From an uncultured Clostridium sp. (GTDB lineage Bacteria; Bacillota; Clostridia; TANB77; CAG-508): 64,000 nucleotides of DNA. Location: NCBI GenBank assembly GCA_947245515.1, contig CAMXQV010000002.1:141-64140 (forward strand), written 5' to 3'. Shown one piece after another: positions 1 to 55,943 of this stretch (positions are counted from its first letter, which is position 1; the number at the start of each line of letters is the position of its first letter). The notes under the pieces were generated by a model. The model was not told where the DNA came from and did not search any database. It was given only the letters and a program-made list of their open reading frames with translations. The translations under genes and the position numbers were made by a program.

Positions 1-676
1 CCTTTAATGCTACGCAATAATCTCCTCCTTTTTCTATTACTGCCGTTACGTTTTCTTTTTGTGTATTTAGTGCATCCCATGTACATATTACACCTTTTAA
101 ATTTAGTCTTTCTATTAATTTTGGAATAACTGTTATTTCGTTTGTTTTTTCTTCTATCATTTCTTGTTCTACACATATTCCATACTTACTTCAAAATACA
201 TTTAATATATTTAATGGCTTTATTTCTTCATCTCTTCTTGAACTTCCTCTTTCAATCTTTCCATCAAAATGATACATTTCTTTTTTATTTTTATTTATTT
301 CTGTTAATATATTTGAAAACTCCACACATATTTTATTAATTTCATTTGATTCTAATAAAGATATTACTCTTTCATATGTTTGAGCTGATGGAATGCCTCC
401 TGTTAACAACAAAAAATTTCTTAACCATTCTTTATTTTTTATTGCAAACATTTCTATTTCTTCCCATTCATCACAATTAGATATTACTGCAAGTAATGCC
501 ACACATACTATATCCCATATTTTATATTTACATTTTCTTTTCATTCTTTTATCTGTTAGATTTTTTGCTTGATTTTTTAGATGTTTTAATTCTGCTATAC
601 TTATTTTTTTCATATCAATTTTCTCACAATTAAATTTATTTTTTATATCTTCTGTTTTCATTTGTTTAATCACCAA
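1..676 (-). mobile_element. ISAs1-family (H-repeat-associated) transposase gene, disrupted and running off the window start; probable pseudogene
   Basis: The 161-aa ORF at 191-676 matches the N-terminal DDE_Tnp_1_assoc region of ISAs1 transposases (WDIVCVALLAVISNCDEWEEIE, GIPSAQTYERVISLL, HFDGKIERGSS). An in-frame TGA at 191-193 interrupts it. The same frame continues through 1-190 with clear ISAs1 similarity (EEKTNEITVIPKLIERLNLKG, TWDALNTQKE, GGDYCVALKG). TGA is an ordinary stop elsewhere in the window, for example at the end of fic, so this is a nonsense lesion and not recoding. Confidence 0.7.
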
Positions 677-1036: not shown

Positions 1037-1981
1037 ATGAAAGAAAAAAAGAATAAAATTATTTTATTTGAAAATCAAGGAGTAAAATTAGAGGTTAATT
1101 TAAAGGAAGAAACTGTATGGCTTACACAAGCACAGATGGAAGAATTATTTGATGTAAAACATTCAACAATAAGTGAGCATATTAATAATATTTTTAAAGA
1201 AGGAGAACTTGAAGAAAAAACTTCTGTCGGAATTTCCGACAAAAGTACAGGTGGTAGAAAATCCAAAATATATAATTTAGATGTTATAATATCTGTTGGG
1301 TATAGGGTTAAATCAAAAAATGGCGTAATTTTCAGGCAATGGGCGAATAAAATTTTAAAAGACTATATGCTAAAGGGATATGCTGTAAATCAAAGAAGAT
1401 TAGAATATTTAGAAAAAACAATAAAGCTAATTGATACAGCAAATAGAATAGATGAAAGATTAGAAGGTAATGATGCAAAAGAAATTTTAAAAGTAATTGG
1501 AGATTATTCAAAAGCATTAGATTTACTAGATGATTATGACCATAGAACTTTAAAGAAAATAGATGGTAATATTGATGAAAGAAAGATTGAATACAAAGAA
1601 TGTATAGAGGTAATAAATAAGTTAAGATTTAATGAAGAAAGTTCACTATTTGCAGTAGAAAGAGACAAAGGCTTAGAATCAATTATTGGTAATATTTATC
1701 AAAGTTTTGCAGGGCAAGATATTTATAAGAGCATAGAAGAAAAAGGTGCAAATTTCTTATATTTAATAGTAAAGAACCATGTATTTGCAGATGGAAATAA
1801 AAGAATTGCAGCAACCTTGTTTATATACTTTTTAAACTTTTATGGAATATTATACATAGATGGAAAGCAAACAATAGATAATAATACTTTGACAGCTTTA
1901 ACATTGTTAATAGCAGAGTCAAACCCAAAAGAAAAAGATATAATTATAGATTTAGTGATGAACTTTTTGAACAATGATTGA
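1037..1981 (+). CDS. fic: RhuM-family N-terminal domain fused to a Fic/DOC domain (putative AMPylation or death-on-curing type toxin)
   Basis: The N-terminus is RhuM-like (KLEVNLKEETVWLTQAQMEELFDV...HINNIFKEGEL). The C-terminus carries the Fic motif HVFADGNKRIAATL, matching HxFx(D/E)GNxR. An SD of AAAGGA precedes the ATG. Confidence 0.75.
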   Translation: MKEKKNKIILFENQGVKLEVNLKEETVWLTQAQMEELFDVKHSTISEHINNIFKEGELEEKTSVGISDKSTGGRKSKIYNLDVIISVGYRVKSKNGVIFRQWANKILKDYMLKGYAVNQRRLEYLEKTIKLIDTANRIDERLEGNDAKEILKVIGDYSKALDLLDDYDHRTLKKIDGNIDERKIEYKECIEVINKLRFNEESSLFAVERDKGLESIIGNIYQSFAGQDIYKSIEEKGANFLYLIVKNHVFADGNKRIAATLFIYFLNFYGILYIDGKQTIDNNTLTALTLLIAESNPKEKDIIIDLVMNFLNND

Positions 1982-2479: not shown

Positions 2480-2499
2480 CTAAATTAGGAGTGCGAAAA

Positions 2500-2973
2500 A
2501 TGTTTTATAATGCAAAAAATAATAATATAAAAATAGGACAAAGTGATATGTACTATATAAGTTTTGGAAAAGGAAATAAAAATTTGATTATAATACCAGG
2601 ACTTGGAGATGGATTAAGAACTGTTAAAGGTATGGCTATTCCACTTGCCTTGATGTATAAAAAGTTTGCCAAAGAATATACAGTATATATGTTTAGTAGA
2701 AGAAATAATCTAACAAATGGATTTACAACACAAGATATGGCACAGGATATAGCCCAAGCAATGAATTTACTTAATATATCAAATGCTGATATATTAGGAG
2801 TTTCTCAAGGTGGAATGATAGCACAAGGTATCGCAATTAACAATCCCGAAAAAGTAAATAAATTAGTTTTAGCAGTAACATCTTCAAAGACTAATGAAAT
2901 GATAAATAATGTTGTTGGAAACTGGATTCAGTTAGCAGAAAAAGAAGATTTTAAAAATATATTCGTAGAATAA
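2500..2973 (+). CDS. Alpha/beta-hydrolase fold protein that appears C-terminally truncated
   Basis: It has the nucleophile elbow GVSQGG (GxSxG) and an N-terminal IIIPGLGDG typical of alpha/beta hydrolases. It ends at about 160 aa with no catalytic Asp/His region. The ATG at 2500 has AGGAG at the correct spacing. The ORF-track start at 2491 is a GTG overlapping the SD. Confidence 0.55.
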   Translation: MFYNAKNNNIKIGQSDMYYISFGKGNKNLIIIPGLGDGLRTVKGMAIPLALMYKKFAKEYTVYMFSRRNNLTNGFTTQDMAQDIAQAMNLLNISNADILGVSQGGMIAQGIAINNPEKVNKLVLAVTSSKTNEMINNVVGNWIQLAEKEDFKNIFVE

Positions 2974-3012: not shown

Positions 3013-6000
3013 TTATAAAACATATTTTTTAATATAATAAACACCTGTTGCAAAAGTCAATAGCATTGTAAAAGTCAATAATCCATACATTACAAACTCA
3101 TATCCAGTTCTAATAGATAAGATAAAGGATGCTTTAGCAAAATCATTATTATCATTTACATCTTCATCTTCTGAAACAAAAGTTGCATAATTAACCATAG
3201 GACCAGCATACTGCTCGCTACCATCATATTTCAAAACAATAGTTACTTCTCTACTCTCTCCTGGTTGTAATACAGTTTCTCCTAGAGAATAGGTAATAAT
3301 ATCACCATTTTGAACCCAATTCCTATTTTTAGGTAAATCAATCTTTAAGTTATTTGGCATTTTATCTTGGATATAATTTACTATCCCCTCTTCTGTTCCA
3401 ACATTAGTAACAATTATCTTATATTCTAACTGTAAACTTAAATATTGTAATCTACTTGCATTAACTTCAAACTTAGTTGCTTTATTTTTCTTAGGAATAT
3501 TAGTTACTTTCTTCTCATTTGTATCAGTATATAATTGTGTAATACTAGTTAAATACTTTTTAATTTCAATGTCAAAACCTTGTGTCCTATTTGAGTTACT
3601 ACCTCCATTACTGCTTCCATTATTATTTCCATTATTATTTCCATTATTGTTTCCATTATTGTTTCCATTATTGTTATTTGAGTTTTCACCTTTGTTGTTT
3701 CCATTACTTGTATTTTGACTACTTGAATTGCTACTTGTATTTCCACTTGTATTTGCACCACTTGTATTTGTGCTTGTATTACTTGTATTGTTCTTATTAC
3801 TATTTGTACTTGTATTGTTCTTATTTGTGTTGTTTGCACTATTTGTATTAGTATTATTTGTATTGGTATTGGTGTTAGTATTAGTATTATTTTTGTCATC
3901 CTCTGATTTAGCTTTATTGGTAATATAAGCTAATATCTCTCCGCCTTTAACTTCAACTTTGATATTGCCTCCTGATTTAACTCTTACATCTGTTAAAGTT
4001 ATTTTACCATCTACATTTTTAAAGGTAACTTGTAATACTTTTTCTTCTGAATCTAGTTTATAACCATCTGGTGCTACAATTTCTTTTATCTTATATTCTA
4101 CAGTTCCAGCTGTTTTTGGTATATTTATACCATTAAATTCAAATATACCATATTTATCTGTAGTTACATTTTGTGTTTTGCCATCTGGTAATACTACTTT
4201 GAAGGATGCTGGTTTAGTTATAGGTTTACCCTTGTTGTCAACTTTTGTAACACTAAGTGAATATTTACCATCTTCTAAACCTAGTTTTTTATCTACAAAT
4301 TCAATTCTTGCACCTTTACCACTATCTATAACACTTGATGTCACATTACTTCCAGATACTATATTTGCTGCTTTAATTGTCATTATTTCATTAACTTTTT
4401 CAAAAGTAAGTTCTAAAATCTTAAACTCTGAATCCAATTTATAGCCTTCTGGTGCTGTTACTTCTTGAATTACATATGAATATTTACCTTCTTTTGCTGG
4501 TGTAGCAATGTCTTCAATAATAATCTTTCCTTCTTTATCTGTAGCTGCCTTAACTTTTTGACCATTTTCAAGCGTAATCTCAAATTTAGCTGCTTTTGTA
4601 ATTGGTCTCTTATTTTGATCAACTTTATTTAAAACAATATTATATTTATCTTTACCTGTTGTAACATCATCTGCTCCTTCTTCATTTCTTACATTAATTG
4701 AAATAGTGTTTGTTGTATTTGATGTTATCTCAATATTACCTCCTACTACTTCAGCAGTCTCTATTTTCATAAGGTCTTTTGGAGCTTTTGTTGTATCTTT
4801 TGCAAACTTAATTTTTAAAATCTTTTGTGTTCTATCTAATTTGTAGCCTTCTGGAGCCATAATCTCTTGAATTTTATACTCAATAGTTTCTTCTTTTGTT
4901 GGCATTTTTAATTTTCTTAAGTATATCTTACCATCTTCTGTTGGATAATATTGTGATGTACCATCTGGTGCTGTTATTTTAAATATTGCATCACCTTTTA
5001 ATAGCTTTTTATCTTTGTTTACTTTTGAAAGTTCTATTTTATATTCATTATCTTCAAGAATATCATCATTATTCATATTGCCTACTCTTATTGCGAATAC
5101 GTTTCCACCAACTTTCAAAATAGATGCATAATCTCCAGATATCTTTTCAGCACTTTCAATATATTTACTTCCTTCTTCTCCATTTTTAATTTTAACTCTA
5201 TATTTTATTGGTGCTGGGTCTTTTTCATATCCTTTTGGAACTTGTTTTTCTTTAATTTCAAAGATATAAGTTCCTTCATCTTCTGGTAATTGTGTTCCCA
5301 ATTTTGTTGCTCTACCAGTATCGTCTGTTTCTAAGTTTTCGATAATATCCTTATATTTTACAACTTCATCAGTAGTAGCTATTTCTGTAGTATCCTCTGT
5401 ACTAGTATCTGTTTTACTTTCAGTTTCAGGCTTTGTATCTGTCTCTGTTTTACTCTCACTATCTGTTTCTTCTTTGGTAATTTCTACATCAAATATTGCA
5501 TGATTATTTTCAATACTTTTACCTGTTGTAATATCCATTTTGTCTATAGTTAAAGCAAAACTATCATCTGAAAATTCATTTACTGGTTTTAGATATACAA
5601 TTTGTTTATCTTCATCTATTTCAATATTAACATCTGAAGACGTCTTTTCTATTTTACCTGTTGTTTTATTTCTTTTTAATAAGACATTTAAAGTACTTGC
5701 ATTTACTTTATACCCATTTGCGGTAGCTGTTTCTTTTAAGTCTATTGATATATTTCCATATCCACTTAAGTAATCACTTGTAATCATACCATCTGCATTA
5801 GTAATTGCATTCCATTCTTTAGTTTGTCCATACTCTTCTTTTAGTTTTATATTAAATTCTACACCTGGTATTAATTCTGGATATACATCATCATCTATAC
5901 CATGTTTTTCTACTACTATTCTATATTCACCAACAATTGGTTGATTTTGAACTTTTAAGTTAAGGTTTCTTGTTCCTACAGAGGTTTGTAGAACTTTATT

Positions 6001-9000
6001 ATCTACATCTGTATAGTTACTTAATAATTCACATTCCTTAATATATCCATCTGAACCATATAATACATAAATCTTAATATCTTCTATACTATTATATCCA
6101 GTTATAGGATTTTGTCTAATTGTATAAACTACACCTTTTTGTGCCATAGCTTCACCTATTTGTTCAGATGTTACTCCATCTAAACCTGTAGCTCTAGTTG
6201 TAAGGTTTAAGTCTGTTTTTGAATGGTCTGTTGCTGTTAATATTTCTGATGTTACATTATAAGTTACACCACTAATTGGAGCTTCTTTCTTAGCAACTAC
6301 TTTACCGCTTCCATCTTTAACTTCTTCTTTTACTGCACTTACAGTAGTTACATTTAATTTTACTCTACTTTCATTCTTTATTATAATAGAAATTTCTCTT
6401 GTGCTCTCATTTACATTAACATTTAGTCCATCTCTATTATCTAATTTAGCTTTTAATAGGGAATCTAAACTTCCATTAGGATTATTTGCAAAATTTGTTG
6501 TTACTTCTACAACTCCGTTTGTTCTTTGTGTTCCAGCAACATATCCACTAGCAAATCCAACCTGATTTACATTAATATAAATTTTGCCCTCTTTATTCAT
6601 TCCATTAGTTTTTCCGATTCCTCTTTCAACTACTCTTACACCTTTTGAAGAAGCTTCTGAGTCAGTATAGTATTTACCATCTACACCTAAATTCTTTGTC
6701 ACACCTTTTTGATATAAAGTTAAGGTTGCATTTGCACTATCTTTAACTTCAACATCAAAGGCTGAACCATTAATTCTTTTACCTGTTGTAGCATCTTCTG
6801 ATACAACTTTAACCTTATATGCTGGATTAACTGTACCATTTCCAATTACAAACCACATATTTCTACAGTTAGTTTTTTCTGTATCACTTGCAGATGCTAT
6901 TTTATTTGCTAAAAAGGCTTGTGTTCTTAATCCACTATCTGAATTTGGTTGTATACTTACAATTTTTCCATAAACATCATAAACAACTGTTACTTTTTGT
7001 GGTGGAATTATTGTTGTATAAGTAGTTTCAGGTTTTGGTCTTGATAATTCTGTTATGGTATATTCAATTGTTGTATTTTTAGCTGGTAAGCCTAAATCAA
7101 AGTATATCTTTCCATCAGCACCTGTTGTTTTATTTGTTGAAGTTGTAATAGTTTTTGATTTTCCTGTAGTCAAATCCTTACCTACAATCTCAAATTGTAC
7201 TCCCTCTAAAGCTTTTTTAGTATTAATATCTTGTTTTAATAAAGTTAGTTCTAGCATAGGGTCGTTTACAAATACTACTTGTATTGTTCCATAAGTTTCA
7301 TCAACTATTACCCTAGCACTCTTACCTGAAGTAGCATCTAATTCTACTTTATAGATTTTCTCTGTTGGTATTGTTGAATTCTCTTCAGTAATCTTATATG
7401 CACTCATACTTGCAGTATTTAAACTTAAGGTATATGCTCCCACAGCAGCTTTCTTAATTTCTAAGGTAATACTATTTTTATTGTCTCTTCTATAGCCTTC
7501 TCCAATTGTTCTTTCAGAAACTACAATTTGGAAGTTTCCACTGTCTCTCAATTTTGTTATTCCTGTTTGTCCATTTATATCTGTTTTTGCTAATTTCTTT
7601 GCTACTCCATTAATAGTAACATCATAATTAGTACCTTCGATTCCAAGTGATTTATAGGTAGCATCTTCATTTTTTACTAATAAGTCAAAAGTATTATTAT
7701 TTGGAACTTTTAAATTCATGTGTACATATTGATTATCAACTTTTACTATATTAGTATTTCCTCTTTTATATAAATCATAGTTTAAGCTATTATCATTACT
7801 TAATTCTAGCCAACTGCTCATTCCTCCATCTGCATCATAGATAACTTTTATTTTTAAATCTTTCATTTTTCTATAAGTATCTGGTGGAGTTACTTCTTGG
7901 ATAGTATAAGTTACTACTCTACCATTAGCTGTTTCTCTAAAAGTATCTATCTTTCCTACTGCTACTCCTTTTGAATTTGTTACAATATTATTAACTTCAT
8001 GTGCTCTACCGTTTTCTTCTACTATTACTTTAAATCTAACATTAGGTATTATAGCTTTTGTTAACTCATCATATTTTGAAAGACCTAATCTTACATCTTC
8101 TGGCATGTTGTATACTTGTAGTCTAGCTGTATGAGTATTTCTGAATACACTTACGTTATCAGATAATAATTTTCCATACTCTTGACTGTTACTGTCAGAA
8201 AATTTAGGAATATCTACTGCTTTACCTGTTGAATCATAAGTTACTGTAAATTTAATTGGTGCTTTTAAAATATAATATCCGACTGCTTTTGTTTTTTGAG
8301 TAATTGTATATTCAACTGTTTTATCTGGATATACTGGTCCTACATAAGTAGTAACAGTTCCAGAAGAATTTGTAATTAGATTTCCAACTGCACTATCACC
8401 TTGATCATTTGTTATTATTAACTCTACATTTTCTAATGGTATATTATTATAGAATTTATCTAACATTTGTAAATCTATAGCTAATTTAGGTTCATTTGTA
8501 ATAGTAATTTCTATATCTTTATTAACTGAAGTATTATCATCTCTTTTATCCTTGCAGATATAGTTAACTGTAATATATTTTTCAGAGAAACTATCTCCTG
8601 GTTCTGCACTTTTTACTGTACCATCTTCTTTATATTCAACTAATAATTTAAGTGTATCTCTAGGTGCAATATATCCATCTGGTACTCCTACTTCTGATAA
8701 AGTATATTCTACAACTCTTCCTGGTAGCATTCTTCCTGCTACTTGAGGTGTCCTATTTGCAGTATTAATAATAAATTCAGAATCATTTGTTATACTTGAA
8801 TCTACATCAGAGGTCACTTTAAATTTAGCTGATAAATCTATTGTGTTATCATATCTATCCTTCTTGTTTATTTGTAAACCTAATTTTCTTTCCATTTTAA
8901 AGATTAACTTTAATTGTGTAGTTCCATAACAACTTTCATCAACATATGCATTTACATCATTAAAGGTATTTTTACTTAATACTTTTGCACCTGAAATTCT

Positions 9001-12000
9001 ACCATCTGTACCATAGGTTACTTCAACCTCAACAGTTGTATCTTCTGCTGTTTGTAAATATCCCTCTTTTAGATTTGTTGCTCTTATTTTGTAAATTGAT
9101 GAACCATTATCAATATTCGCTCCCCAATAGGTCCAACTTGTATAACCAGCGCTATTTGTATAATACTCATATTCTGTCCTATATTCATAAGAAGTATTAC
9201 TTACTGGTGTATTGTTTTCATATGGATGGAATCTAACATCTCCTATTCCTACTTTACTTATTCTATCTTCTGCTTTCATTGATACTGTTGTTATTGGAGC
9301 ATATTCAATTGTTAAATCAACATGATGTTTATTATCCTTTATACTATCTCCTCTGTCAACAATTATTGTACTAGTGTATCCTTCTTGTATATTATTGTTA
9401 GAAGTTTCTGTTTCTACTGAAGTTTCTATTACTTCTCCTTTTTGATCATATTTAACTAATATTGTACCAATTACATGGTCAAATACCTTTTGTTTTCTAG
9501 ATCTATATTTTTGATATTGTACTGGAGATGTAGGTTCTGCTTCTTCATAAATATAGAATCTTCTAATTTTGTAATTTTCGCTTCCTAAATCTGATTTTTC
9601 TGATTCTATAGGTGAAACTCCTTTATAAGTATAATCTTTGTAATGTTTTGAAACATCAAGTGGAGCAATTATGTTATCATCAAAATGTTGAGAATATTCT
9701 CTTCCTACATAATCTGGATCACTTGTGTCACCAATATAGCCTGCTTTAACTAAATCATCACCTTTTATAGTTCCACTAGGTTTTGATGTAGAAATAACAA
9801 TTCTTTCTCCGCTTACAGGTTCTTTAGTATATTTATCTTGTACATGTGTTGAAAATTCAACCATCGGATAATATTTTATTACTATATTTATTGTATTTCT
9901 TGTATTAGTAATACTTAAATATTTTCCATCTGCATTCCATCCACCCAAGTCTGTATTTTGTTTACCCCAGTTATGAGGTGCTACTCCTGTAACACTACCT
10001 TCATCATTAAAGGTAATATCAAATAACATATTATATCTAATGCTTTCATAAGTGCTGAAATATGCTTGATTTCCTATATAATATCTGTCTGGTGTTTTTA
10101 TTTCGTCTATTCTTAATATTCTAGTTCCTGCATTTTCTTCGTACACCCCTAAACTTGCTGAATCTTCGCCATGTATTCCTTCTGTTGTAGTTTGCATTCC
10201 CATATTAGTGTTTGTAACTACTTGATTTGTAGCAGCTCCATTTGAAGCTAAAGTTGTTGCATATTTTTCATCTTTTACAAAAGATACTCCTCCAACTGTA
10301 TGTGTTAAGTAAGCTGAATACTCACCAACTTCTAGCTTTTTATTTTTATCATATACATCTTCAACAGTTATATTTATTTTTACTTCATCACTTGGTTTAT
10401 TATATATTGTAAAGTCAACTTGGAAATTCTCTGCGTTACTTCCTGTAATATCCATATCACCTGATACCTTTTTAACTAAAGGCTCACCAGTTGTAGGATC
10501 TTTTGCCATCTTTCCTTTTGAATCATATTGTACTTCTAATATAATCATTTCATCTGGCCAATCATATCCATAAGGTTTTCTTGTTTCTTTTATAGTATAT
10601 TCTATAGTTTTATTATCTAAAGTTTTATCCATATAAGCAATAGCATTTCCTGATGCATCTGTTGTTACTCTATCAACATCTAATCTAACTAGACCTTTTA
10701 CTTTAGCCAATAAGTCATTAACTGTTGTTTGAGTAGTTTTTCCATCTTTTATTAATACGTTTATTACTTGTAAATTTGCAACTTGTTGTATCAAAGTATT
10801 ACTTTGACCTTTTGAAAGCTTTCCAAGTTCGATTAATCTATTTATCTTATCTGTAGCATTTACACCTGAAGTTACTTTATTATGTTCTTCTGTAGTAATA
10901 TTTCCAGCAAGTTCTAATTGTTTTAAATATTCTTCTACTACAATTTCTTTTCTTATGTCTAATATTTCTTCAGAATTTAGTTTTAATCTATCTATTACTT
11001 CTCCTAAGTATTGATCTTCTGTCATTTCAGCTGTGTCTAAAATCAACGCTTCTTGTTCTTCTTTTGTAAAGTTCGATAAATCTCTCTTTGCTATTCTTGC
11101 TGTAATTTCATAATCTACGTTTGCTAAGGCTTCAGTTGGAAAGTCTTTATCTACTTTATGTAGATTTAATTTTTCTGCTAGATTACTTTGTATTGTAACA
11201 TCCACTCTAAAGAAATCCTCTGGGTTTACTTCTGCATCTACATCTGTAGGAATAGCTATGGTTGTTATATCGTCTCTTGATTTAATTTCAGCCTTTGTTA
11301 CATATCCATCTGAGTCAAAGAATACTTCGATTTTAACATCAATACTTAAAGATTGATAATTAGGTGCTGGTAAGTTTTCTTTTATTGTATACACTATTGA
11401 ATTATCAAATACCGTTTTATCTAAATGTGCCACTCCTATTCCATCTTTACCTGTCGTTACACTATCATCACCTGTATTTATACTTGAGGTTACTTTATAA
11501 TTTGTTCCTTCTAATTTTATAGAATTATCCTGTCTATCAATATTTTCTATATTTAGATGCATCTCTGGATAATTAAATACATCAATTTCTAGAATTCCCT
11601 TATCATTTCCATTATATCCATAATCTGCACTTGTAGATGGCTGTAATGCTTTTACATTTACAAATCTATTTGGAGTTTGTACTAAGTTAGCTGATAATAT
11701 TTCTCTATTTTCTCCATATTCAACATCTACTTCAAAATCATCTATTTTTGCAAAACCTTTTGCTGCTTTAACTTGTCTAATTTTATATCTAATTACTTCT
11801 GAAGTTCCAAAGGCACCTGAATAAGATACTCCTTTACCATTACTTCCTGTTGTCGCTTTTCCTAAAATTATATTATTTGAATCTATAACTTCAAATTCCC
11901 CACCTTGCAATTTATCGTTATGGTTAAAATATTTAGCATTCTCAAAAGCAATTGGAACTGTAGGTTCAATATATACTCTTAATTTTACACTCTTACCTGA

Positions 12001-15000
12001 TGCATTTACTACTCTTACATCTTCACTATTAGTAGCTACTGGTACTTTTGAATCTATATTGCCATTTTCATCATAGGTTATTGTGAAATTTAAGTTATCT
12101 ATTCCAATATATTTATTTGTACCAACACTATGAATTAGTTCATAAGTCTCTGTAGCATTTGTTGTTACATATTTTACACTCATTCTCATAGTTTGATAAG
12201 TTGCATTAAATTCACCTTTATATAAACTTAAAGAATTCTTAACAGAAACATCAATATCACTACCAATTACCTTATTCGTAAATTTATCTACTGTTTCTAT
12301 TTCTACATTTAAAGGATCTTGTTCTTGCATAATAATTTTAAGTTCTACATCTGTTATTACATTACCATTTTCATCCCTAGTATTTGTAGTAGCAAACCAC
12401 CAATCTCCTGGGTTAGTTCCATTTACTCTATAATGTGGATCTCTTTGTCCTGCTAAAGTAGCTGTTGTATCTACCTCATTATCTGGTGTAAAGTAAATTT
12501 GCATATTAATTTTATTTGTTATCTTTTTATAATATTTACCTGATTGTATATTTTCAATAGTATAAGTTACTGGTGAAGTTTTATCATCATATCTTCCTCC
12601 TACTTTTGTAGAAACTTTACCTTCTGCATTTGTTGGATCTGATGTTTTTAGTGAACCTTTAGTACTACTTATTTGATATTTAGCATTACTTATTCCTTTT
12701 CCTTCTTTATCTTGAGTGTCAATTTGAATATTAAATACATCTTCTTTTGCATCAAACATTTCAACATCATATACACTTTGAACTGCTCCACTAGGTAAGG
12801 TTACAGACATTTGCTTTGTTAATTTAGCTTTTGACGCAGTTATCGCATCTGTTGTTGAATCAATTACTAGTGTAACTTCATCAGTGTATTTATCAATTGC
12901 ACTTACTTTTAATACAAGGGTATTATTTTTTGAATGTGCTATTGGTGCAACTGTTTCTGTAATATATATCTTAGAATCTAATGGTACATATAACCCATTA
13001 TATTCTATATCTTCATTTACTTTTACATTTGTATTTACAAGTTTAGTTCCATCTGGTCTTTCTATAATAACATCATATACTGCACCTGTTAATACTGTTT
13101 TATCATCTAAGCTCTTTTTGATTAAATCTAAAGATAAATTTCCTGTTGCATCATAGTCTGTATAAATTTGTATATTTACATCTGATTCATATCCATTATT
13201 AGTTTCTGCTGCACTGAAATTCTTTCCACCACTTGCTGGAATTAGCCTATTTCCTTTAATTGTTTCAACATTTACAACTTCAATCATACCTTTATCTTCA
13301 TTATATCTGAAGGTTAATTTTAATTCTACTAAATTTCCATCTACTATTATATCAACTAAGTATACTTGTTCTCCTGGCATTTTAGTATTTTTTACTTTTA
13401 AAGAACTTAAGTCGACATTTCCTATTGTTAATTGATCTGTAGATGACAATACTTCTTTATCTAATATTTTACCAGTTTCTGGATCATGAATTTGTTCATA
13501 ATTATTTTTTATAACATTTACAACTCTTACTTTCTTTCCTCCAACTGGAGCCTTTGAATTATGATCTATAGTTGTTATAGAAAGATTTAGTAGAACATCG
13601 TCTTGAGTCTTCTTTTTGTTTGTATGATGATAAGTAATAGTATTACCAGCTATTGTTGCATATTTTGGGAATTGTCCTGGTTGCACTGGTGGCATTACTT
13701 CTGTTGGAGTATGAGTGATAGTATTATTTGTAATATTTATAGCTAATTCTTGTGGTATTTGATCTCCTTTATATCCTGTTTTTGCTTTAGTTTGTGTAGC
13801 TGTTATTTCTATTTGATTTGTTGTTGCTTTATCTACAAATAAACGTGTTTGTATTCTACCTCTACCATCAGTAGGTCTTGCTTTAATGTCTTTTGTAAAC
13901 ATACCTGCTTTTATGTTTATATCGTATTCTGCTTTGTCAATGGTTGCACCTGTATCTACATCTCTTAGATCAACCTCAAATAAATAAGATTTAGCTGCAT
14001 CAATTGATAGATGTGTTTTTATAAATGCTGTATGTAAGGTATTATACTCATCAGCCTCAAGATTAGTATTAATCATATCAATTGGTCCTCTTACATTATT
14101 TGCTCCACAAATATGTTTATTTCTATCAAATTCTATATTAAATTCTGCTGGAGCTGTAAAACTCTCATATCCATAAGGTACCTGTACTGTTTCTAATTTA
14201 TATAAATAATTTCCTTGTGGTTCATCATCTATCATAAATTCTGCTATACCATTAGCATCAGTTGCAGTAGCTTTATATGCTTTTCCTGTTACAGTATTAG
14301 TTAAAGAAAATTCTACATTTTCTATATAATATTCTGGAATTTCGTCCTTATCTATTACTTCAACTTTTACTACATTTCTTTCTGCTTTAACTTTACTTTT
14401 TAAATTAACTTTTACTTTATCTTTTTTAGGCTCTGCTAATACATCTAAATCAGTCGGTGTTTTAGTTGCAATTTGTTCTACTCTGCCATTTAATCTTTGG
14501 ATTAATATTGTATTTACTGTAGGATCTTTTGCATATCCTGGTGCAGGTGAATTTTCAGTTATCTTAACTGTTACATATCCTGAACCTGGCAATTTTAATT
14601 CAATTTTTCCTCCATTTGAGGTAATATTTTTAGAATAATTGTAGGTTGCACCATTATAATCAATTACTGTTACATTATAATCAGCACCATCTATTCCATT
14701 TCCACTTTTCTCATCTTTTAAGTTTAATTCAAAATTAAATCCATTTGTAAGACTATTTTCATTTCCTATCTTTACAACTGCATGTGTATTACTCTTTCTT
14801 TCTGCTGTTACCTTATCATTATAAACTTTTTCTATAGCTGTTACATTTCCCAAATTATCATAGGTAATTCTTAAAGTAACATTTCCCATAGAAGTATAGC
14901 CTGGTAGTTCTGACATCTGTGATAAAATATATTCATAGGTTTCTTCTTTTCCTGTTGGTGTCATTACAGTTGGTTTAAAAATTAATTTTCCATCTTCATC

Positions 15001-16542
15001 TGTTTTTCCAAATAAAGCTTTCATTTCATATTTGTTATTAACTGTTGGTTGTATTAATCTAAATTCAACATCTTTCAAAGGTATTGTATCATTATTTAAC
15101 TCTGATAAGTTGATCTCTAAGTCAAATTTTTGTGTATCTATAGGATATTCAAAGTTTACAATTCTTCTGTCATCATCTACTACAAAGTCAAGACCATCTG
15201 AATCTTTAACTTCAATTACTCTTCTTCCTAAATAATCATTATTTATTGTGATTGTTCTCTTTTCTGTAGAATTTGAATACCCTGGAACGTTATTAACTTG
15301 TGGCTCTATAAAATATTCAACATCATCTAGTGTTCTTAATTTGTCAATTGTTATGTACCCATAATCATCTACTTTTTTAGTTGCTTCATATACAACGTTT
15401 TCTTCTGAGTCTGTTCCTGTAATTTTAAATTCTACTCCCTTAACAGGTATCTTATTGTTTTCAGCACTAACTGCTTTAATCCTAATTGTATAGGTTTCGC
15501 AAACTGTAAATTTAGGTCCTTCTATCTCTAAGGCATCCAAACTTTTTGGATTCTTTCTCATATTATAAGATAAATTTACATTTTTTGCTGAATACCAGTT
15601 TTTATATATAATATTTCTATCAATTTCCTTGTTAGGTTTTAAACTTAATTTATATTTAAAAGTAGCATTATCTTTTCCAATAGTAGTTGGAGTCCAAACA
15701 AATCCATCAGCTGTTTTTGTTACATTATTATTATTTACTAAAGTTATATCAAAGTATTCTAGGACATTATCTGTAAAAATATTTGTAACTTGAACATCTG
15801 TAAGGCTTTTCAAAATATGATCTACAACAACATCTGCATTTTCAACAAGTGGATCAAGCATATAAATTAGTCCATAATTAGGTGCTTGTTCTGTTCCAAT
15901 TATATTATTTGTAATTCCTGTAGTAATTGTAATTACATTTATGTTATCTGCTTTTAATTGGTCATATTTTTCTTTTACCATATCTGTAGAGTCTGTAATA
16001 ATAACCATGGTATTTATAGCACTAGGATCTAATAAATTTAAGCTATCATGTGCACTTTGTATCGCATTAGCTAAGCTATTTGTACTTGTAAAATTTGTGC
16101 TATTTATTGCATTATTAATAGTCACTGGGTTATATGAACCAAGTGCTACTGCAGTTCCATTATTATTTGAATAAGATACTTTTGCAGAACCACACAAACC
16201 ATTAGCTAAGTTTCTAGCTACTTGCCTTGCATTATTTTTATCTACATTAATATCCATCGAATATGAGTTATCTAATACAATAGCTACTTGATAGTTATCC
16301 CTTCCCGCTTTGTTTGTAACTTCAAGTTGATACATCAATTCTGTATCATTTGACTCACTTTCAATAATTGTCTGTTTTATTTTAGCTTCATCAGATTCTT
16401 TTTCAGTTTCTTTTTTCAAAATATCTATAACATAATCATTTTTTATATCTGCATTTACATAGGTAAAAAATGATGCTATAGCTATTCCTACTAGAATCAT
16501 TGTGATTATCATTCCAATTAAATACTTTCTTTTGCCTTTCAT
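3013..16542 (-). CDS. Giant surface adhesin of 4509 aa
   Basis: It opens with a signal peptide (MKGKRKYLIGMIITMILVGIAIA) and a vWA/MIDAS-like segment (VAIVLDNSYSMD...MVIITDSTD). Dozens of Cna-B/SpaA-like repeat units follow (for example GVEFKITGTD...DDYGYITI). Asn/Thr/Ser/Gly-rich low-complexity linkers are present. The C-terminus has a DUF11-like module (LEYKIIVTNVGTEEG...LQPGESREVTIVLKY), a transmembrane helix and the tail YYIKKYVL. No LPXTG motif is present. A good SD (AAAGGAGAAAG) precedes the start. Confidence 0.85.
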   Translation of the reverse strand: MKGKRKYLIGMIITMILVGIAIASFFTYVNADIKNDYVIDILKKETEKESDEAKIKQTIIESESNDTELMYQLEVTNKAGRDNYQVAIVLDNSYSMDINVDKNNARQVARNLANGLCGSAKVSYSNNNGTAVALGSYNPVTINNAINSTNFTSTNSLANAIQSAHDSLNLLDPSAINTMVIITDSTDMVKEKYDQLKADNINVITITTGITNNIIGTEQAPNYGLIYMLDPLVENADVVVDHILKSLTDVQVTNIFTDNVLEYFDITLVNNNNVTKTADGFVWTPTTIGKDNATFKYKLSLKPNKEIDRNIIYKNWYSAKNVNLSYNMRKNPKSLDALEIEGPKFTVCETYTIRIKAVSAENNKIPVKGVEFKITGTDSEENVVYEATKKVDDYGYITIDKLRTLDDVEYFIEPQVNNVPGYSNSTEKRTITINNDYLGRRVIEVKDSDGLDFVVDDDRRIVNFEYPIDTQKFDLEINLSELNNDTIPLKDVEFRLIQPTVNNKYEMKALFGKTDEDGKLIFKPTVMTPTGKEETYEYILSQMSELPGYTSMGNVTLRITYDNLGNVTAIEKVYNDKVTAERKSNTHAVVKIGNENSLTNGFNFELNLKDEKSGNGIDGADYNVTVIDYNGATYNYSKNITSNGGKIELKLPGSGYVTVKITENSPAPGYAKDPTVNTILIQRLNGRVEQIATKTPTDLDVLAEPKKDKVKVNLKSKVKAERNVVKVEVIDKDEIPEYYIENVEFSLTNTVTGKAYKATATDANGIAEFMIDDEPQGNYLYKLETVQVPYGYESFTAPAEFNIEFDRNKHICGANNVRGPIDMINTNLEADEYNTLHTAFIKTHLSIDAAKSYLFEVDLRDVDTGATIDKAEYDINIKAGMFTKDIKARPTDGRGRIQTRLFVDKATTNQIEITATQTKAKTGYKGDQIPQELAINITNNTITHTPTEVMPPVQPGQFPKYATIAGNTITYHHTNKKKTQDDVLLNLSITTIDHNSKAPVGGKKVRVVNVIKNNYEQIHDPETGKILDKEVLSSTDQLTIGNVDLSSLKVKNTKMPGEQVYLVDIIVDGNLVELKLTFRYNEDKGMIEVVNVETIKGNRLIPASGGKNFSAAETNNGYESDVNIQIYTDYDATGNLSLDLIKKSLDDKTVLTGAVYDVIIERPDGTKLVNTNVKVNEDIEYNGLYVPLDSKIYITETVAPIAHSKNNTLVLKVSAIDKYTDEVTLVIDSTTDAITASKAKLTKQMSVTLPSGAVQSVYDVEMFDAKEDVFNIQIDTQDKEGKGISNAKYQISSTKGSLKTSDPTNAEGKVSTKVGGRYDDKTSPVTYTIENIQSGKYYKKITNKINMQIYFTPDNEVDTTATLAGQRDPHYRVNGTNPGDWWFATTNTRDENGNVITDVELKIIMQEQDPLNVEIETVDKFTNKVIGSDIDVSVKNSLSLYKGEFNATYQTMRMSVKYVTTNATETYELIHSVGTNKYIGIDNLNFTITYDENGNIDSKVPVATNSEDVRVVNASGKSVKLRVYIEPTVPIAFENAKYFNHNDKLQGGEFEVIDSNNIILGKATTGSNGKGVSYSGAFGTSEVIRYKIRQVKAAKGFAKIDDFEVDVEYGENREILSANLVQTPNRFVNVKALQPSTSADYGYNGNDKGILEIDVFNYPEMHLNIENIDRQDNSIKLEGTNYKVTSSINTGDDSVTTGKDGIGVAHLDKTVFDNSIVYTIKENLPAPNYQSLSIDVKIEVFFDSDGYVTKAEIKSRDDITTIAIPTDVDAEVNPEDFFRVDVTIQSNLAEKLNLHKVDKDFPTEALANVDYEITARIAKRDLSNFTKEEQEALILDTAEMTEDQYLGEVIDRLKLNSEEILDIRKEIVVEEYLKQLELAGNITTEEHNKVTSGVNATDKINRLIELGKLSKGQSNTLIQQVANLQVINVLIKDGKTTQTTVNDLLAKVKGLVRLDVDRVTTDASGNAIAYMDKTLDNKTIEYTIKETRKPYGYDWPDEMIILEVQYDSKGKMAKDPTTGEPLVKKVSGDMDITGSNAENFQVDFTIYNKPSDEVKINITVEDVYDKNKKLEVGEYSAYLTHTVGGVSFVKDEKYATTLASNGAATNQVVTNTNMGMQTTTEGIHGEDSASLGVYEENAGTRILRIDEIKTPDRYYIGNQAYFSTYESIRYNMLFDITFNDEGSVTGVAPHNWGKQNTDLGGWNADGKYLSITNTRNTINIVIKYYPMVEFSTHVQDKYTKEPVSGERIVISTSKPSGTIKGDDLVKAGYIGDTSDPDYVGREYSQHFDDNIIAPLDVSKHYKDYTYKGVSPIESEKSDLGSENYKIRRFYIYEEAEPTSPVQYQKYRSRKQKVFDHVIGTILVKYDQKGEVIETSVETETSNNNIQEGYTSTIIVDRGDSIKDNKHHVDLTIEYAPITTVSMKAEDRISKVGIGDVRFHPYENNTPVSNTSYEYRTEYEYYTNSAGYTSWTYWGANIDNGSSIYKIRATNLKEGYLQTAEDTTVEVEVTYGTDGRISGAKVLSKNTFNDVNAYVDESCYGTTQLKLIFKMERKLGLQINKKDRYDNTIDLSAKFKVTSDVDSSITNDSEFIINTANRTPQVAGRMLPGRVVEYTLSEVGVPDGYIAPRDTLKLLVEYKEDGTVKSAEPGDSFSEKYITVNYICKDKRDDNTSVNKDIEITITNEPKLAIDLQMLDKFYNNIPLENVELIITNDQGDSAVGNLITNSSGTVTTYVGPVYPDKTVEYTITQKTKAVGYYILKAPIKFTVTYDSTGKAVDIPKFSDSNSQEYGKLLSDNVSVFRNTHTARLQVYNMPEDVRLGLSKYDELTKAIIPNVRFKVIVEENGRAHEVNNIVTNSKGVAVGKIDTFRETANGRVVTYTIQEVTPPDTYRKMKDLKIKVIYDADGGMSSWLELSNDNSLNYDLYKRGNTNIVKVDNQYVHMNLKVPNNNTFDLLVKNEDATYKSLGIEGTNYDVTINGVAKKLAKTDINGQTGITKLRDSGNFQIVVSERTIGEGYRRDNKNSITLEIKKAAVGAYTLSLNTASMSAYKITEENSTIPTEKIYKVELDATSGKSARVIVDETYGTIQVVFVNDPMLELTLLKQDINTKKALEGVQFEIVGKDLTTGKSKTITTSTNKTTGADGKIYFDLGLPAKNTTIEYTITELSRPKPETTYTTIIPPQKVTVVYDVYGKIVSIQPNSDSGLRTQAFLANKIASASDTEKTNCRNMWFVIGNGTVNPAYKVKVVSEDATTGKRINGSAFDVEVKDSANATLTLYQKGVTKNLGVDGKYYTDSEASSKGVRVVERGIGKTNGMNKEGKIYINVNQVGFASGYVAGTQRTNGVVEVTTNFANNPNGSLDSLLKAKLDNRDGLNVNVNESTREISIIIKNESRVKLNVTTVSAVKEEVKDGSGKVVAKKEAPISGVTYNVTSEILTATDHSKTDLNLTTRATGLDGVTSEQIGEAMAQKGVVYTIRQNPITGYNSIEDIKIYVLYGSDGYIKECELLSNYTDVDNKVLQTSVGTRNLNLKVQNQPIVGEYRIVVEKHGIDDDVYPELIPGVEFNIKLKEEYGQTKEWNAITNADGMITSDYLSGYGNISIDLKETATANGYKVNASTLNVLLKRNKTTGKIEKTSSDVNIEIDEDKQIVYLKPVNEFSDDSFALTIDKMDITTGKSIENNHAIFDVEITKEETDSESKTETDTKPETESKTDTSTEDTTEIATTDEVVKYKDIIENLETDDTGRATKLGTQLPEDEGTYIFEIKEKQVPKGYEKDPAPIKYRVKIKNGEEGSKYIESAEKISGDYASILKVGGNVFAIRVGNMNNDDILEDNEYKIELSKVNKDKKLLKGDAIFKITAPDGTSQYYPTEDGKIYLRKLKMPTKEETIEYKIQEIMAPEGYKLDRTQKILKIKFAKDTTKAPKDLMKIETAEVVGGNIEITSNTTNTISINVRNEEGADDVTTGKDKYNIVLNKVDQNKRPITKAAKFEITLENGQKVKAATDKEGKIIIEDIATPAKEGKYSYVIQEVTAPEGYKLDSEFKILELTFEKVNEIMTIKAANIVSGSNVTSSVIDSGKGARIEFVDKKLGLEDGKYSLSVTKVDNKGKPITKPASFKVVLPDGKTQNVTTDKYGIFEFNGINIPKTAGTVEYKIKEIVAPDGYKLDSEEKVLQVTFKNVDGKITLTDVRVKSGGNIKVEVKGGEILAYITNKAKSEDDKNNTNTNTNTNTNNTNTNSANNTNKNNTSTNSNKNNTSNTSTNTSGANTSGNTSSNSSSQNTSNGNNKGENSNNNNGNNNGNNNGNNNGNNNGSSNGGSNSNRTQGFDIEIKKYLTSITQLYTDTNEKKVTNIPKKNKATKFEVNASRLQYLSLQLEYKIIVTNVGTEEGIVNYIQDKMPNNLKIDLPKNRNWVQNGDIITYSLGETVLQPGESREVTIVLKYDGSEQYAGPMVNYATFVSEDEDVNDNNDFAKASFILSIRTGYEFVMYGLLTFTMLLTFATGVYYIKKYVL
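3595..3895. repeat. Coding low-complexity tandem repeats with 12-bp and 6-bp periods, encoding a GNNN/NT/S-rich linker in the adhesin
   Basis: The unit ccattattgtttccattattgtttccattattg repeats in the DNA. The protein segment reads NNNGNNNGNNNGNNNG...NTNTNTNTN. Confidence 0.7.
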
Positions 16543-18679: not shown

Positions 18680-19222
18680 CTAATCTTTAATATATATATT
18701 TACTTTAGTAGGTCTACAATAATACATCCATTCTCCTTTTACAAAAATCTGAAGTTTACCTTCCTCTGCAAGGTATTTATATTCAGGAGATACTAATTGA
18801 TTTGTTACATGATCTTGCCTATCAACAAAATATTCTTTTATTTCTATTCCAAAATCTTCTACTTTTTTTTCTTTATAATTTTCAATATAACTAGAAATAT
18901 CACACTCTGCATAATATATATATCCTGTTTCAGTTCCATTAGTTTTATATTCAACTGGCAAATCACTTATTAATTTATATTTCTTTTCTTCTTCTTTAAC
19001 CTTATCTTTAATTATTGCATTCCATGCTACTTCATAATTTTCTAAAGTAGTATTTTCTAAGGCTTGTGCTTCTTTTTGTTTTTTATCTGCTTCTTTTGCT
19101 CTATTAATTAGTCCATTATCTGTTAATTGCATAATTACTATTCCTGATAAAATTATTATTATTATAAGAGTTATAATTAAGGCAATTAAAGTAATTCCCA
19201 TTTCTTTAGTATTATTTCTCAT
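18680..19222 (-). CDS. Pilin-like protein (paralog 1 of 3) with a prepilin-like hydrophobic N-terminus
   Basis: The N-terminus reads MRNNTKEMGITLIALIITLIIIIILSGIVIMQLTDNGLINRAKEA. This resembles the type IV prepilin leader plus helix, but Ala replaces the conserved Glu at position +5. The SD is GGGAGAG. Confidence 0.55.
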   Translation of the reverse strand: MRNNTKEMGITLIALIITLIIIIILSGIVIMQLTDNGLINRAKEADKKQKEAQALENTTLENYEVAWNAIIKDKVKEEEKKYKLISDLPVEYKTNGTETGYIYYAECDISSYIENYKEKKVEDFGIEIKEYFVDRQDHVTNQLVSPEYKYLAEEGKLQIFVKGEWMYYCRPTKVNIYIKD

Positions 19223-19234: not shown

Positions 19235-20731
19235 CTATTTTATATAAAGTACTGGGCGAAAACCGAAATCTGTATTAGGGCTATTAAAGCCAATTCTACC
19301 TCTAAAGCAAGCTGGAGCTGTTCCATATACCTCCCAAAAACTACCAGAACGTAACGAACTATACACTCCAGAGTATACTGCTGTCTCTTGCACAAATTCA
19401 TATAAATTTCCTGCTACATCATATAGATTTTTCTTTTTTACTTCCTCTGTCGAACCTGTTGTTAATAAGGTTCGATATCCAGAATTATTATTCGTCTTGT
19501 TTACATTTTCTTCCCAGTCTGATACCATTGACCCATTTCCATCTATTAAGCAATATTTTCCTCCGCAGTTATTTATGGTTGTATTATAATAATTTCCCCA
19601 TGTACAATTTGTTTTTAAATCTGTATATTTGCTTGCATCTGATGCATTTACTTCACTTTTATCTATTTCATCACTCATAAAGTTTATCATTACATCCCAT
19701 TGTGTTCCTGTTATTAATCCACTATGCACATAATTTGTATTATACATTCTTCTTGACATTATTTCAGCTATTTCTACATTTACATGATTATATGGTATTT
19801 CGTTTGCTTTTGTTGTTGGTTTACTTTCTGCTGTTACTTTATCTATGACATAGCAATCGTTTGTCATGCCTATTATTTTTTCATCTCCTATTTTCTTTCC
19901 ATCTTTTAAGGTTACTTCACTTGTTCCTGCTTCATATCTTCCTACGTAAAACCCATCATATTTTATAATTTGTGTTTCCTCTGCTACATTTGTTCTAGTA
20001 TCAAAAGAATTGTTTGCATATCCCCAATTATATTTCTTATAATTTTCTATATTACATGGAATCCATACAAATTGATTTCCTTCTAAGTCTTTTCCTACAT
20101 CTTCTTGTCCCACATATTTATTTTTATCCTTTGCATTATCTGATATTACTACTCCAGAATTTACTGTTCCTCCTACATAATAAAAACCATATGGTACTGG
20201 CACTGTTTCTCCTTCTCCTCCTGATACTGCATATACTGTTGCTACTTTTGTTATTTCTTTTTCTTCTCCATTTTCTGTTTTTACTACTCTCATAGCTTCT
20301 GTTCCCCAACTGTCTTTTATTGCTACTTCTGTTCCTGCATCTGTTGTTGGCGTATTCTCTGGTAATTTATTTACTACTCCTGTACCTGTTACCTTTCCTA
20401 ATTCTGTTATTTTAAATTCGTAACCATCTACTATTATTGTTAAATCATAATTTATTTCACTTACTTGGCTCTGTAAACCTTCTATTTTATTTACGTTTTC
20501 TTTTAGTAAGGCTTTATCTAAGTTTGCATTTTCTCCTATTGATGCCATTACTGCTAGTTTTACTTTTTCTTCTGCTGTTGCATATTTATTTTTTTCTCCC
20601 GCTATTTTTGCTCGATTTACTAATCCATTTTCTCCTGTTAACGTTATTATTGTTATTCCTGATAAGATTATTAATACTATTATTGTTATTATTAAGGCTA
20701 TTAAAGTTATACCGATATTCTTCTCTTTTAT
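19235..20731 (-). CDS. Pilin-like N-terminus fused to an FGE-sulfatase (SUMF1-like) domain (paralog 2); no canonical start codon
   Basis: The C-terminal roughly 280 aa carry FGE-sulfatase domain motifs (FVWIP, GFYVGRYE, RSGSFWEV, ACFRGR, FGFRPV). The reading frame runs with no stop upstream of the annotated ATG at 20548 and encodes KEKNIGITLIALIITIIVLIILSGITIITLTGENGLVNRAKIA. The only start-like codon is ATA at 20729-20731, at the position where paralogs have ATG. Confidence 0.5.
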   Translation of the reverse strand: MKEKNIGITLIALIITIIVLIILSGITIITLTGENGLVNRAKIAGEKNKYATAEEKVKLAVMASIGENANLDKALLKENVNKIEGLQSQVSEINYDLTIIVDGYEFKITELGKVTGTGVVNKLPENTPTTDAGTEVAIKDSWGTEAMRVVKTENGEEKEITKVATVYAVSGGEGETVPVPYGFYYVGGTVNSGVVISDNAKDKNKYVGQEDVGKDLEGNQFVWIPCNIENYKKYNWGYANNSFDTRTNVAEETQIIKYDGFYVGRYEAGTSEVTLKDGKKIGDEKIIGMTNDCYVIDKVTAESKPTTKANEIPYNHVNVEIAEIMSRRMYNTNYVHSGLITGTQWDVMINFMSDEIDKSEVNASDASKYTDLKTNCTWGNYYNTTINNCGGKYCLIDGNGSMVSDWEENVNKTNNNSGYRTLLTTGSTEEVKKKNLYDVAGNLYEFVQETAVYSGVYSSLRSGSFWEVYGTAPACFRGRIGFNSPNTDFGFRPVLYIK

Positions 20732-33267: not shown

Positions 33268-33283
33268 TTTTTATCTTCCTTTC

Positions 33284-34990: not shown

Positions 34991-35201
34991 TTATTTCCTC
35001 CGAATTCTAGTTTTTATTTTATATTTTTTATCTAAAATAATAATTGTTATCTATTAATTTATATTTTATTTTATATCATAAAATCCTTATTTTAACAACA
35101 AAATTTGACAAATTTAGTTAATAATATGTTATCCTAGTTAAATTAATTGATATCTTTTAATATATATATTATAATAAAGTAAACATATAATATAAAAGGA
35201 T

Positions 35202-51277: not shown

Positions 51278-51295
51278 ACTTCTTTCCTTTCTAAT

Positions 51296-53482: not shown

Positions 53483-53500
53483 ATTTTCACCTTCTTCATT

Positions 53501-54043: not shown

Positions 54044-54057
54044 CTCTCTTTTATGTT

Positions 54058-54873: not shown

Positions 54874-54889
54874 TTTTTACTCCTAATTT

Positions 54890-55943
<1,054 letters not shown>

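Follow-up and report, generated by a model that had tools for sequence, protein, structure and literature searches.

A CLIPPER domain joined to a proline-less LPXTG-like signal on giant adhesins from uncultured gut Clostridia

How are giant immunoglobulin (Ig)-repeat proteins anchored if they end without a canonical LPXTG signal? The question is raised by a 64,000-nt stretch of DNA from an uncultured Clostridium sp. (assembly GCA_947245515.1, contig CAMXQV010000002.1, positions 141-64,140), referred to here as the window. The original prediction, made from the sequence alone, held that three giant adhesins encoded in the window share a sortase-independent, non-LPXTG anchoring module. We found that the module is a real, family-specific unit on very large Ig-repeat surface proteins. 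Its beta domain is of a known kind, CLIPPER (formerly DUF11), here as a distinct subtype that always comes last before the membrane. As its anchor it carries a variant of the LPXTG-type signal that lacks the proline, is new and uncatalogued, and is not demonstrably sortase-independent. The identity of the domain, the anatomy and conservation of the signal, and its homology to proline-containing tails of partner proteins are established below. The three module copies lie in two open reading frames (ORFs), ORF1 and ORF2, and in a partial gene, gene 3:

3016-3576, reverse strand: module copy 1, the C-terminal 187 aa of the 4509-aa ORF1 (3013-16542), a CLIPPER/DUF11 domain with a sorting-signal-like tail
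3103-3117, reverse strand: SIRTG pentapeptide of copy 1, at the position equivalent to LPXTG
3031-3102, reverse strand: hydrophobic transmembrane segment of copy 1, YEFVMYGLLTFTMLLTFATGVYYI, read from the sequence (the homologous helix of copy 2 lies at 171-201 in the structure model described below)
3016-3030, reverse strand: basic tail of copy 1, KKYVL-COOH
45281-45868, reverse strand: module copy 2, internal, aa 1183-1378 of the 3135-aa ORF2 (40007-49414), with CLIPPER domain, SIKTG, transmembrane segment TM1 and KKKK
45359-45373, reverse strand: SIKTG pentapeptide of copy 2
45293-45358, reverse strand: TM1 of copy 2, IITYTIIIVALLGILLLTGFLI
62820-63365, reverse strand: module copy 3, the C-terminal 182 aa of gene 3 (62817-64000), which runs off the window end
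62904-62918, 62835-62894 and 62820-62834, reverse strand: MIATG, transmembrane segment and KKYVL of copy 3, respectively
63366-63860, reverse strand: upstream, non-terminal CLIPPER-like copy of gene 3 (module HMM match at aa 41-205)

The three copies could be aligned end to end with 34-35% identity (alignment A1). BLASTP with compositional adjustment gave expectation values (E) of 7e-18 and 1e-20 at 32% identity between copies, and the similarity is therefore not compositional. A hidden Markov model (HMM) of the module scored 191.7 bits (E 2.4e-57), 254 bits and 179.5 bits on copies 1, 2 and 3, respectively, and 26.6 bits on the non-terminal copy of gene 3. With 30.3, 36.3 and 32.2 bits, all three modules were above the Pfam gathering score of 24.6 bits for DUF11 (PF01345). 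Copy 3 was also matched by TIGR01451 (25.9 bits, cutoff 24). The predicted arrangement of a DUF11-like domain, one transmembrane helix and a basic tail was borne out. The consensus strings LQ[IV]EY.I.V.N.G, P.G[LM].F and G[EQ][ST][KR][EQ] were found in the alignment, and ORF1 and gene 3 both terminate in IKKYVL, in agreement with the identical ending reported for two of the three proteins. The span of 3013-3400 first given for copy 1 was too short: the module extends to 3576, and of the domain this span takes in, besides the tail, no more than the C-terminal two thirds. ORF1 and gene 3 do end with the module, as had been stated for all three proteins, but in ORF2 it is internal and the frame stays open into 1730 more residues.

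The window is chromosomal, AT-rich and from a spore-forming Firmicute. Its nearest public relatives are metagenome-assembled genomes (MAGs) of uncultured gut Clostridia from mouse, rabbit, chicken and human, among them "Clostridium sp. CAG:440, CAG:575, CAG:389 and CAG:780". MGBC161478 (CAQPRV01) came out on top, at 89% identity across the module, and genomes that carry the module number roughly 360. Besides A1, an alignment of 17 sequences (A2) was made, as well as a five-sequence subset (A3) that was used for the genome search. At E<=1e-3 the module profile matched 12003 cluster representatives (50% identity), of which 2260 remained at E<=1e-30. General CLIPPER-repeat proteins made up many of the top matches, and 90 of the best 150 cluster representatives were proteins of 900-2900 aa with this module as their C-terminal end. 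Together with 115 modules from 78 genome loci these 90 made up 205 modules, of which 203 were unique after removal of duplicates; the conservation figures below refer to the latter. Pairwise identity among family modules had a median of 40%. The sole named member found was MBR3249329.1, labelled "DUF11 domain-containing protein" by NCBI.

The tail carries a feature that the original prediction had missed. In every window copy the helix is immediately preceded by I-x-T-G (SIRTG, SIKTG and MIATG), and the description "non-LPXTG" is therefore right as to the absence of L-P but overlooks an invariant I-x-T-G. Position 1 of the signal is S in 72%, T in 11%, A in 6% and G in 6% of the modules; position 2 is I in 61%, V in 29%, L in 4% and P in 2%; position 3 is K in 44%, S in 22%, V in 10% and R in 7%. 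Positions 4 and 5 are nearly fixed (T169 98%, G170 99.5%). Four variable residues, a Tyr (72%) and about 18 hydrophobic residues follow, and then I-K-K-[Y/K/F]-V-[L/I], which is usually the extreme C-terminus (I193 80%, K194 74%, K195 79%, V197 64%). The T-G and the KK are separated by 22-24 mostly hydrophobic residues. In LPXTG signals the motif is followed, over no more than about 45 residues, by a hydrophobic segment and a positively charged tail, and this was found in the module tails. They also combine Pro at position 2 with T-G; here T-G is kept and Pro is rare. Non-terminal CLIPPER copies lack the TG, as in gene 3, where the upstream copy (aa 47-211) ends ...AKIIIDY and the next domain directly abuts.

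No catalogued model was found to recognize the tail at threshold. The curated cutoff of TIGR01167 (LPXTG_anchor) is 15.9 bits; the tail of copy 2 scored 14.8 bits and those of copies 1 and 3 had no match, while five tails from related loci gave 15.8 bits, 13.1 bits and three times no match. Pfam Gram_pos_anchor did not match the module tails, nor did other NCBIfam C-terminal sorting models, including the exosortase and rhombosortase types, at threshold. Below threshold, matches were obtained to srtB_target (10.5 bits, cutoff 18.15) and Rumino_NPXTG (13-14 bits, cutoff 23.5). For SIKTG, SVKTG, SIRTG and SVSTG, a literature search brought up no relevant account of a role in sorting. The tail is thus uncatalogued, while the beta domain to which it is joined has already been described as CLIPPER (PMC12617251).

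DUF11 (PF01345) was renamed CLIPPER in 2025 (PMC12617251). It is a CnaA-like Ig domain, solved as PDB 9IFR, with an intramolecular Lys-Asn isopeptide bond formed under Asp catalysis; the Lys is in the first strand, the Asn in a late strand (PMC12617251). Conservation of K7 (99%), D68 (98.5%) and N128 (100%) over the 203 modules fits this triad, which is present in all three window copies, and a Lys-Asn isopeptide bond in the module is accordingly a putative one. T-G is conserved as strongly as these putative isopeptide residues, despite the low median identity of the modules. An AlphaFold2 (AF2) model built from alignment A2 had a predicted local distance difference test score (pLDDT) of 91.5 and was all-beta over residues 3-168, with a helix at 171-201. 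S-I-K closes the last strand (158-168), and T169-G170 is a two-residue link from strand to helix. Foldseek matched the model to Ig/CnaA-like folds, including 9IFR, the C-terminal domains of antigen I/II, Cna and FimA, with low TM-scores (template modelling scores, 0.23-0.39) because the helix was included in the model. The likeness is at the level of fold only, as no PDB chain was matched by sequence, either with the profile (E up to 1) or with a single sequence (E up to 10).

Proline-containing versions of the same tail occur on partner proteins. The window proteins with a proline-containing signal are the following:

22085-24247, reverse strand: SpaA-repeat protein of 720 aa whose sorting signal is a canonical LPKTG (TIGR01167 16.9 bits), for comparison
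40010-45199, reverse strand: part B of ORF2, a second adhesin with SpaA-type repeats that ends with VTPSTG, a transmembrane segment and KRKLKK
40106-40120 and 40028-40093, reverse strand: motif and transmembrane segment, respectively, of the part B tail (TIGR01167 22.2 bits)

Both signals pass TIGR01167, and LPKTG- and TPSTG-type signals thus coexist in the window as had been claimed. Within the 78 loci, 69 large proteins end in [T/S/I/V/L/M]-P-[P/S/A/N]-T-G-(E/D)-N-x-N-Y...G.G..IKKKVL. They have the spacer, the Tyr and the IKKxVL ending of the module tails, which align position by position with the [TS]PxTG tails. The end of window part B (...SEQVIVTPSTGENQNY...) pairs residue for residue with ...SEAQLIVSIKTGIITY..., and the module HMM gave E 2e-05 on its last 117 aa. 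In 49 of the 69 partner proteins the match of the module HMM extends to the C-terminal end, and module and partner tails are therefore paralogous versions of one signal. Pro itself was found at position 2 in four modules (MPKTG, SPATG, SPSTG and APKTG). Three of these, MPKTG, SPATG and SPSTG, are 66-76% identical to modules with SIKTG, GVVTG, STRTG or SIVTG, which shows that position 2 toggles between close relatives while T-G stays fixed.

The partners were found to be encoded next to, or fused to, the module proteins. The 115 modules in the loci comprise 75 terminal and 40 internal ones. Downstream of 66 of the 75 terminal-module genes lies a further giant gene, mostly at a distance of -44 to +22 nt, whose product has a signal peptide of its own and an xPxTG end in most cases where the end is classifiable. 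In the 40 internal cases the frame continues through a fixed junction, with a signal peptide inside the chain and a second adhesin beyond it. The junction begins with TG and a hydrophobic stretch of 18-24 residues (22-24 residues in 38 of the 40 ORFs). Next come a loop, 6-18 residues long and with a net charge of +3 to +7, and a hydrophobic h-region of 9-21 residues followed by an AxA-like site; complete ORFs run on for 1250-2270 residues. In ORF2 the frame has no stop after the module and proceeds through KKKKINIKN and the signal-peptide-like LMMFMTILMSIVVMNMPNISQA into the 1730 residues mentioned above:

45200-45292, reverse strand: basic loop KKKKINIKN and internal signal-peptide-like segment LMMFMTILMSIVVMNM, with c-region PNISQA|Q

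The fused ORFs recur across divergent MAGs (L005, L006, L007, L009, L012-L014, L016, L018, L019, L021-L024, L032, L048 and L075), and L005, L006 and L007 share the amino-acid sequence of the window-type junction in conserved form. In L001 and L002 the module protein (A) and its partner (B) are separate adjacent genes. About 27 loci have the A-B locus between minC and spoIIE, as does the window. The two KKYVL-type proteins of the window have no B partner downstream.

What is most unusual about the system is that a sorting signal lies mid-chain, in front of a signal peptide that is likewise internal. Independent translation of part B is unlikely: no Shine-Dalgarno sequence was found before the ATG ATG at the window junction, most of the 40 fused junctions likewise lack one, and several relatives have no Met in the basic loop. 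The fused ORFs (40007-49414 and about 40 in related MAGs) may instead be true polyproteins, a tentative reading to which we give a little less than an even chance. A single product would then contain an internal sorting signal (SIKTG, transmembrane helix and KKKK), with KKKK as the n-region of a cleavable internal signal peptide. The chain would be threaded out-in-out and cut to yield two giant adhesins with separate anchors, the proline-less signal for A and TPSTG for B.

Other features of these proteins and loci were observed. Many B-type partners (L022, L061, L066, L075 and others) have an N-terminal region of about 150 aa with N[IL][FY]C[MV]EH and, 75-80 residues on, VQNAIWNY. The C...Q strings resemble the Cys and Gln motifs of thioester domains, with Gln replaced by Ser in some members, and window part B has HCITPNKSMCG where the partners carry the thioester-like Cys motif. 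A thioester domain in B-type partners ([YF]C[IVM]E ... VQNAIW) was considered and left unsupported, as no Pfam match was obtained. A small protein without family match (49801-50280, forward strand) is conserved, as an ORF of about 155 aa, in 25 related loci; its gene lies between minC and the gene for the A-B adhesin and is read from the other strand. ORF1 has a low-complexity linker before the module, which copies 2 and 3 lack:

3577-3909, reverse strand: Asn/Thr/Ser/Gly-rich low-complexity linker upstream of the module in ORF1

This linker of 111 aa, with NNNG and NT repeats, lies between the SpaA-repeat stalk and the terminal module. At the other end of ORF1, aa 86-185 (window 16230-16290) gave a weak, sub-cutoff VWA_2 match (18.1 bits) with a D-x-S-x-S-like LDNSYSMD motif, and ORF1 may carry a von Willebrand A adhesive head.

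What, then, does the tail do? On the sequences at hand we favour, with modest confidence, a proline-less LPXTG-type sorting signal on which a sortase most likely still acts. That the signal is still functional, with position 2 relaxed or altered, is favoured by its three-part anatomy, by a fixed T-G next to a variable x, by the interchange of P, I and V, and by the spacer and tail features shared with partner proteins. The module would be the membrane-proximal end of fibrillar adhesins, a CLIPPER domain fused to a lineage-specific LPXTG-type variant. Such an adhesin would be exported by Sec through its N-terminal signal peptide, and the hydrophobic segment and basic tail would stop transfer and keep the precursor in the membrane. 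A sortase encoded elsewhere, tolerant of a beta-branched residue in place of Pro, would cut between T and G and join the Thr to peptidoglycan; we infer such T|G cleavage and wall linkage for the module proteins. The cross-linked CLIPPER domain could then serve as the load-bearing base of the stalk. In the fused ORFs, the basic patch of the mid-chain signal would double as the n-region of the internal signal peptide that exports the second adhesin with its own TPSTG. Since the window holds canonical LPKTG and TPSTG signals, a sortase should be encoded somewhere in the genome.

A number of observations weigh against sortase processing. Every module tail tested falls below the curated LPXTG_anchor cutoff, Pro is missing from position 2 in about 98% of the modules, and the AF2 model puts S-I-K in the last beta-strand and not in a flexible linker. 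Sortases were found neither in the window (Pfam and NCBIfam scans of all ORFs of at least 150 aa), nor in the 78 related loci of about 1.4 Mb (TLxTC regular expression, 83 sequences; atypical sortases may be missed), nor in four further loci (Pfam tables). C. difficile SrtB does not cleave the CbpA motif NVQTG in vitro, and the conclusion drawn by its authors was that a different mechanism attaches CbpA (PMC4155245, PMC5569036). In the loci, moreover, module tails carry I/V and the classifiable downstream or fused partner tails carry P, a strict division that suggests different fates. These observations would also fit an uncleaved membrane anchor, in which a descendant of a sortase signal became sortase-resistant by loss of Pro and left a type I bitopic protein, with a TM1-loop-TM2 hairpin in the fused ORFs, and with only the [TS]PxTG partner going to the wall. 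The systematic pairing (66 of 75 adjacent, 40 fused) speaks for such an anchor, as does the view of CbpA as no true sortase substrate, and T-G could be kept merely as the two-residue strand-helix junction seen in the model. Structural need alone does not readily explain, however, why Thr and Gly are retained at 98% and 99.5% amid variable neighbours in modules of 40% median identity. Swaps of P against I, V or T between close relatives would flip the fate of the protein, and the spacer, Tyr and IKKxVL are conserved alike whether or not the tail has P, as would be expected of tails read by a single machinery. We regard the uncleaved anchor as less likely than sortase processing, of which it is nonetheless a serious competitor.

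The independence from sortase claimed originally would call for a dedicated enzyme or secretion partner, exosortase- or rhombosortase-like, that reads TG-x4-Y...IKKYVL-COOH. Tail conservation (I193, K194, K195, V197) is indeed unusually high for a sorting signal and mostly exactly C-terminal, and no catalogued sorting-domain model matches it at threshold. A dedicated export or anchoring partner was looked for by clustering of neighbours in the loci and in four further loci, and none was found adjacent to the adhesin genes. The neighbour clusters were MreCD, PBP2, MinC, SpoIIE and a few ORF families of no known function (about 155, 508 and 132 aa), and those of the KKYVL subfamily were a bitopic Ig-repeat protein of about 310 aa, a CmpB-like protein and a GGDEF protein. 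The same tail features moreover occur on partners with an ordinary xPxTG that pass LPXTG_anchor. A dedicated system thus appears improbable, and sortase independence is left unsupported given the three-part signal, the fixed T-G, the alignment with [TS]PxTG tails, the swaps of I, V or T for P and the lack of a partner gene. That the similarity is merely compositional, or the fused ORF a sequencing artefact, could be suspected in a very AT-rich genome with proteins rich in low-complexity sequence. This is scarcely credible and is refuted by the composition-adjusted BLASTP values, by module HMM scores of 180-254 bits on all three copies, by the 2260 cluster representatives at E<=1e-30, and by in-frame fusion in 40 ORFs from many MAGs with amino-acid conservation across the junction.

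The proline-less motif could define a new sortase specificity; it could also be a deliberate switch between membrane and wall anchoring. S-[I/V]-x-T-G, interchangeable with S-P-x-T-G in close relatives, is a testable case for relaxation of sortases at position 2, or else may show a lineage switching a protein between wall and membrane, and it has a bearing on how NVQTG of CbpA works in C. difficile. "DUF11 domain-containing protein" is the only label that giant adhesins of uncultured gut Clostridia currently bear. As current models miss the proline-less signal, surface-proteome predictions for these abundant gut lineages overlook such adhesins. If true, the in-frame pairing of two internal signals, one for sorting and one for export, would be an uncommon way for bacteria to display surface proteins from a polyprotein.

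The surroundings of the adhesin genes were also inspected. The recurrent gene of about 310 aa downstream of KKYVL-type genes was considered as an enzyme and rejected, being the bitopic Ig-repeat protein named above. It follows the adhesin in three of four KKYVL-type loci (L083 15724-16653, L085 15158-16093 and L086 16838-17779). A GGDEF protein comes after it in all three, with a CmpB-like protein in between in L085 and L086. Upstream of these adhesins lies a Peptidase_S11 gene, with a CAP-domain gene in L083 and L086, and L086 has a type VII secretion ATPase and a WXG100 gene nearby. Core genes in the window were assigned by Pfam/NCBIfam scans of its ORFs:

37340-39769: SpoIIE
50666-55771: MinC, PBP2, MreD, MreC and MreB
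60183-62495: PcrA

Downstream of ORF1 are a DDE_Tnp_1-associated ORF (191-676, reverse strand), a RhuM/Fic protein (1037-1981, forward strand) and a truncated alpha/beta hydrolase (2491-2973, forward strand), which suggests a mobile-element scar beside the 4509-aa adhesin gene. The island at 30814-37130 has two N6/N4 DNA methyltransferases, an SfsA-like nuclease, an unmatched 568-aa protein, a zeta toxin and a metallo-beta-lactamase (MBL)-fold hydrolase, and probably represents a cassette, of the restriction-modification or the toxin kind, that has been inserted among core genes. Two small ORFs (18680-19222, reverse strand, and 24557-24859, forward strand) have type-IV-pilin-like N-termini (MRNNTKEMGITLIALIITLIIIIILSG... 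and MNRKMKGVTLIALVITIIILLILSG...). Both carry Ala at +5, where Glu is canonical, and the GspG match was only weak (17.8 bits). The 437-aa ORF at 19235-20548 that adjoins the former had no family match.

Compared with known systems, the module resembles CLIPPER/9IFR in its Pfam match, its K/D/N triad and its occurrence in fibrillar adhesins and, to judge from the AF2 model, probably also in an Ig-like beta-sandwich. It differs in being a last-domain subtype welded to a sorting signal, in an insertion of about 25 residues between the first strand and the core, and in having no sequence-level match to that structure. Class E sortases (LAXTG) and Listeria SrtB (NAKTN) show that sortase substrates may lack Pro at position 2, as the module motif does (PMC8225981), but there the replacement is Ala, and other taxa and other sortase classes are concerned. 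C. difficile CbpA (CD3145) is likewise a clostridial adhesin with a proline-less x-V-x-T-G, a hydrophobic segment and a charged tail (PMC4155245, PMC5569036). CbpA is a collagen-binding MSCRAMM (microbial surface component recognizing adhesive matrix molecules) whose likeness to the module is one of motif layout, and its NVQTG stands as one case, in contrast to S-[IV]-x-T-G with its conservation across more than 200 modules. With the LPXTG signal (TIGR01167/Gram_pos_anchor) the module shares all three parts, a pentapeptide ending in T-G, a hydrophobic segment and a basic tail. Unlike LPXTG, it has Ile or Val (90%) and not Pro at position 2, and its tails score under the model cutoff. Its motif lies directly against the final beta-strand of a folded domain, its basic tail is a fixed I-K-K-x-V-L, and its signal is internal in 40 ORFs. 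The C. difficile SrtB motif (S/P)PxTG comes closest to the partner tails: position 1 of the module is Ser or Thr, as in SPKTG, and the partners in the module loci carry TPSTG, TPPTG or SPNTG together with the spacer, Tyr and tail of the module.

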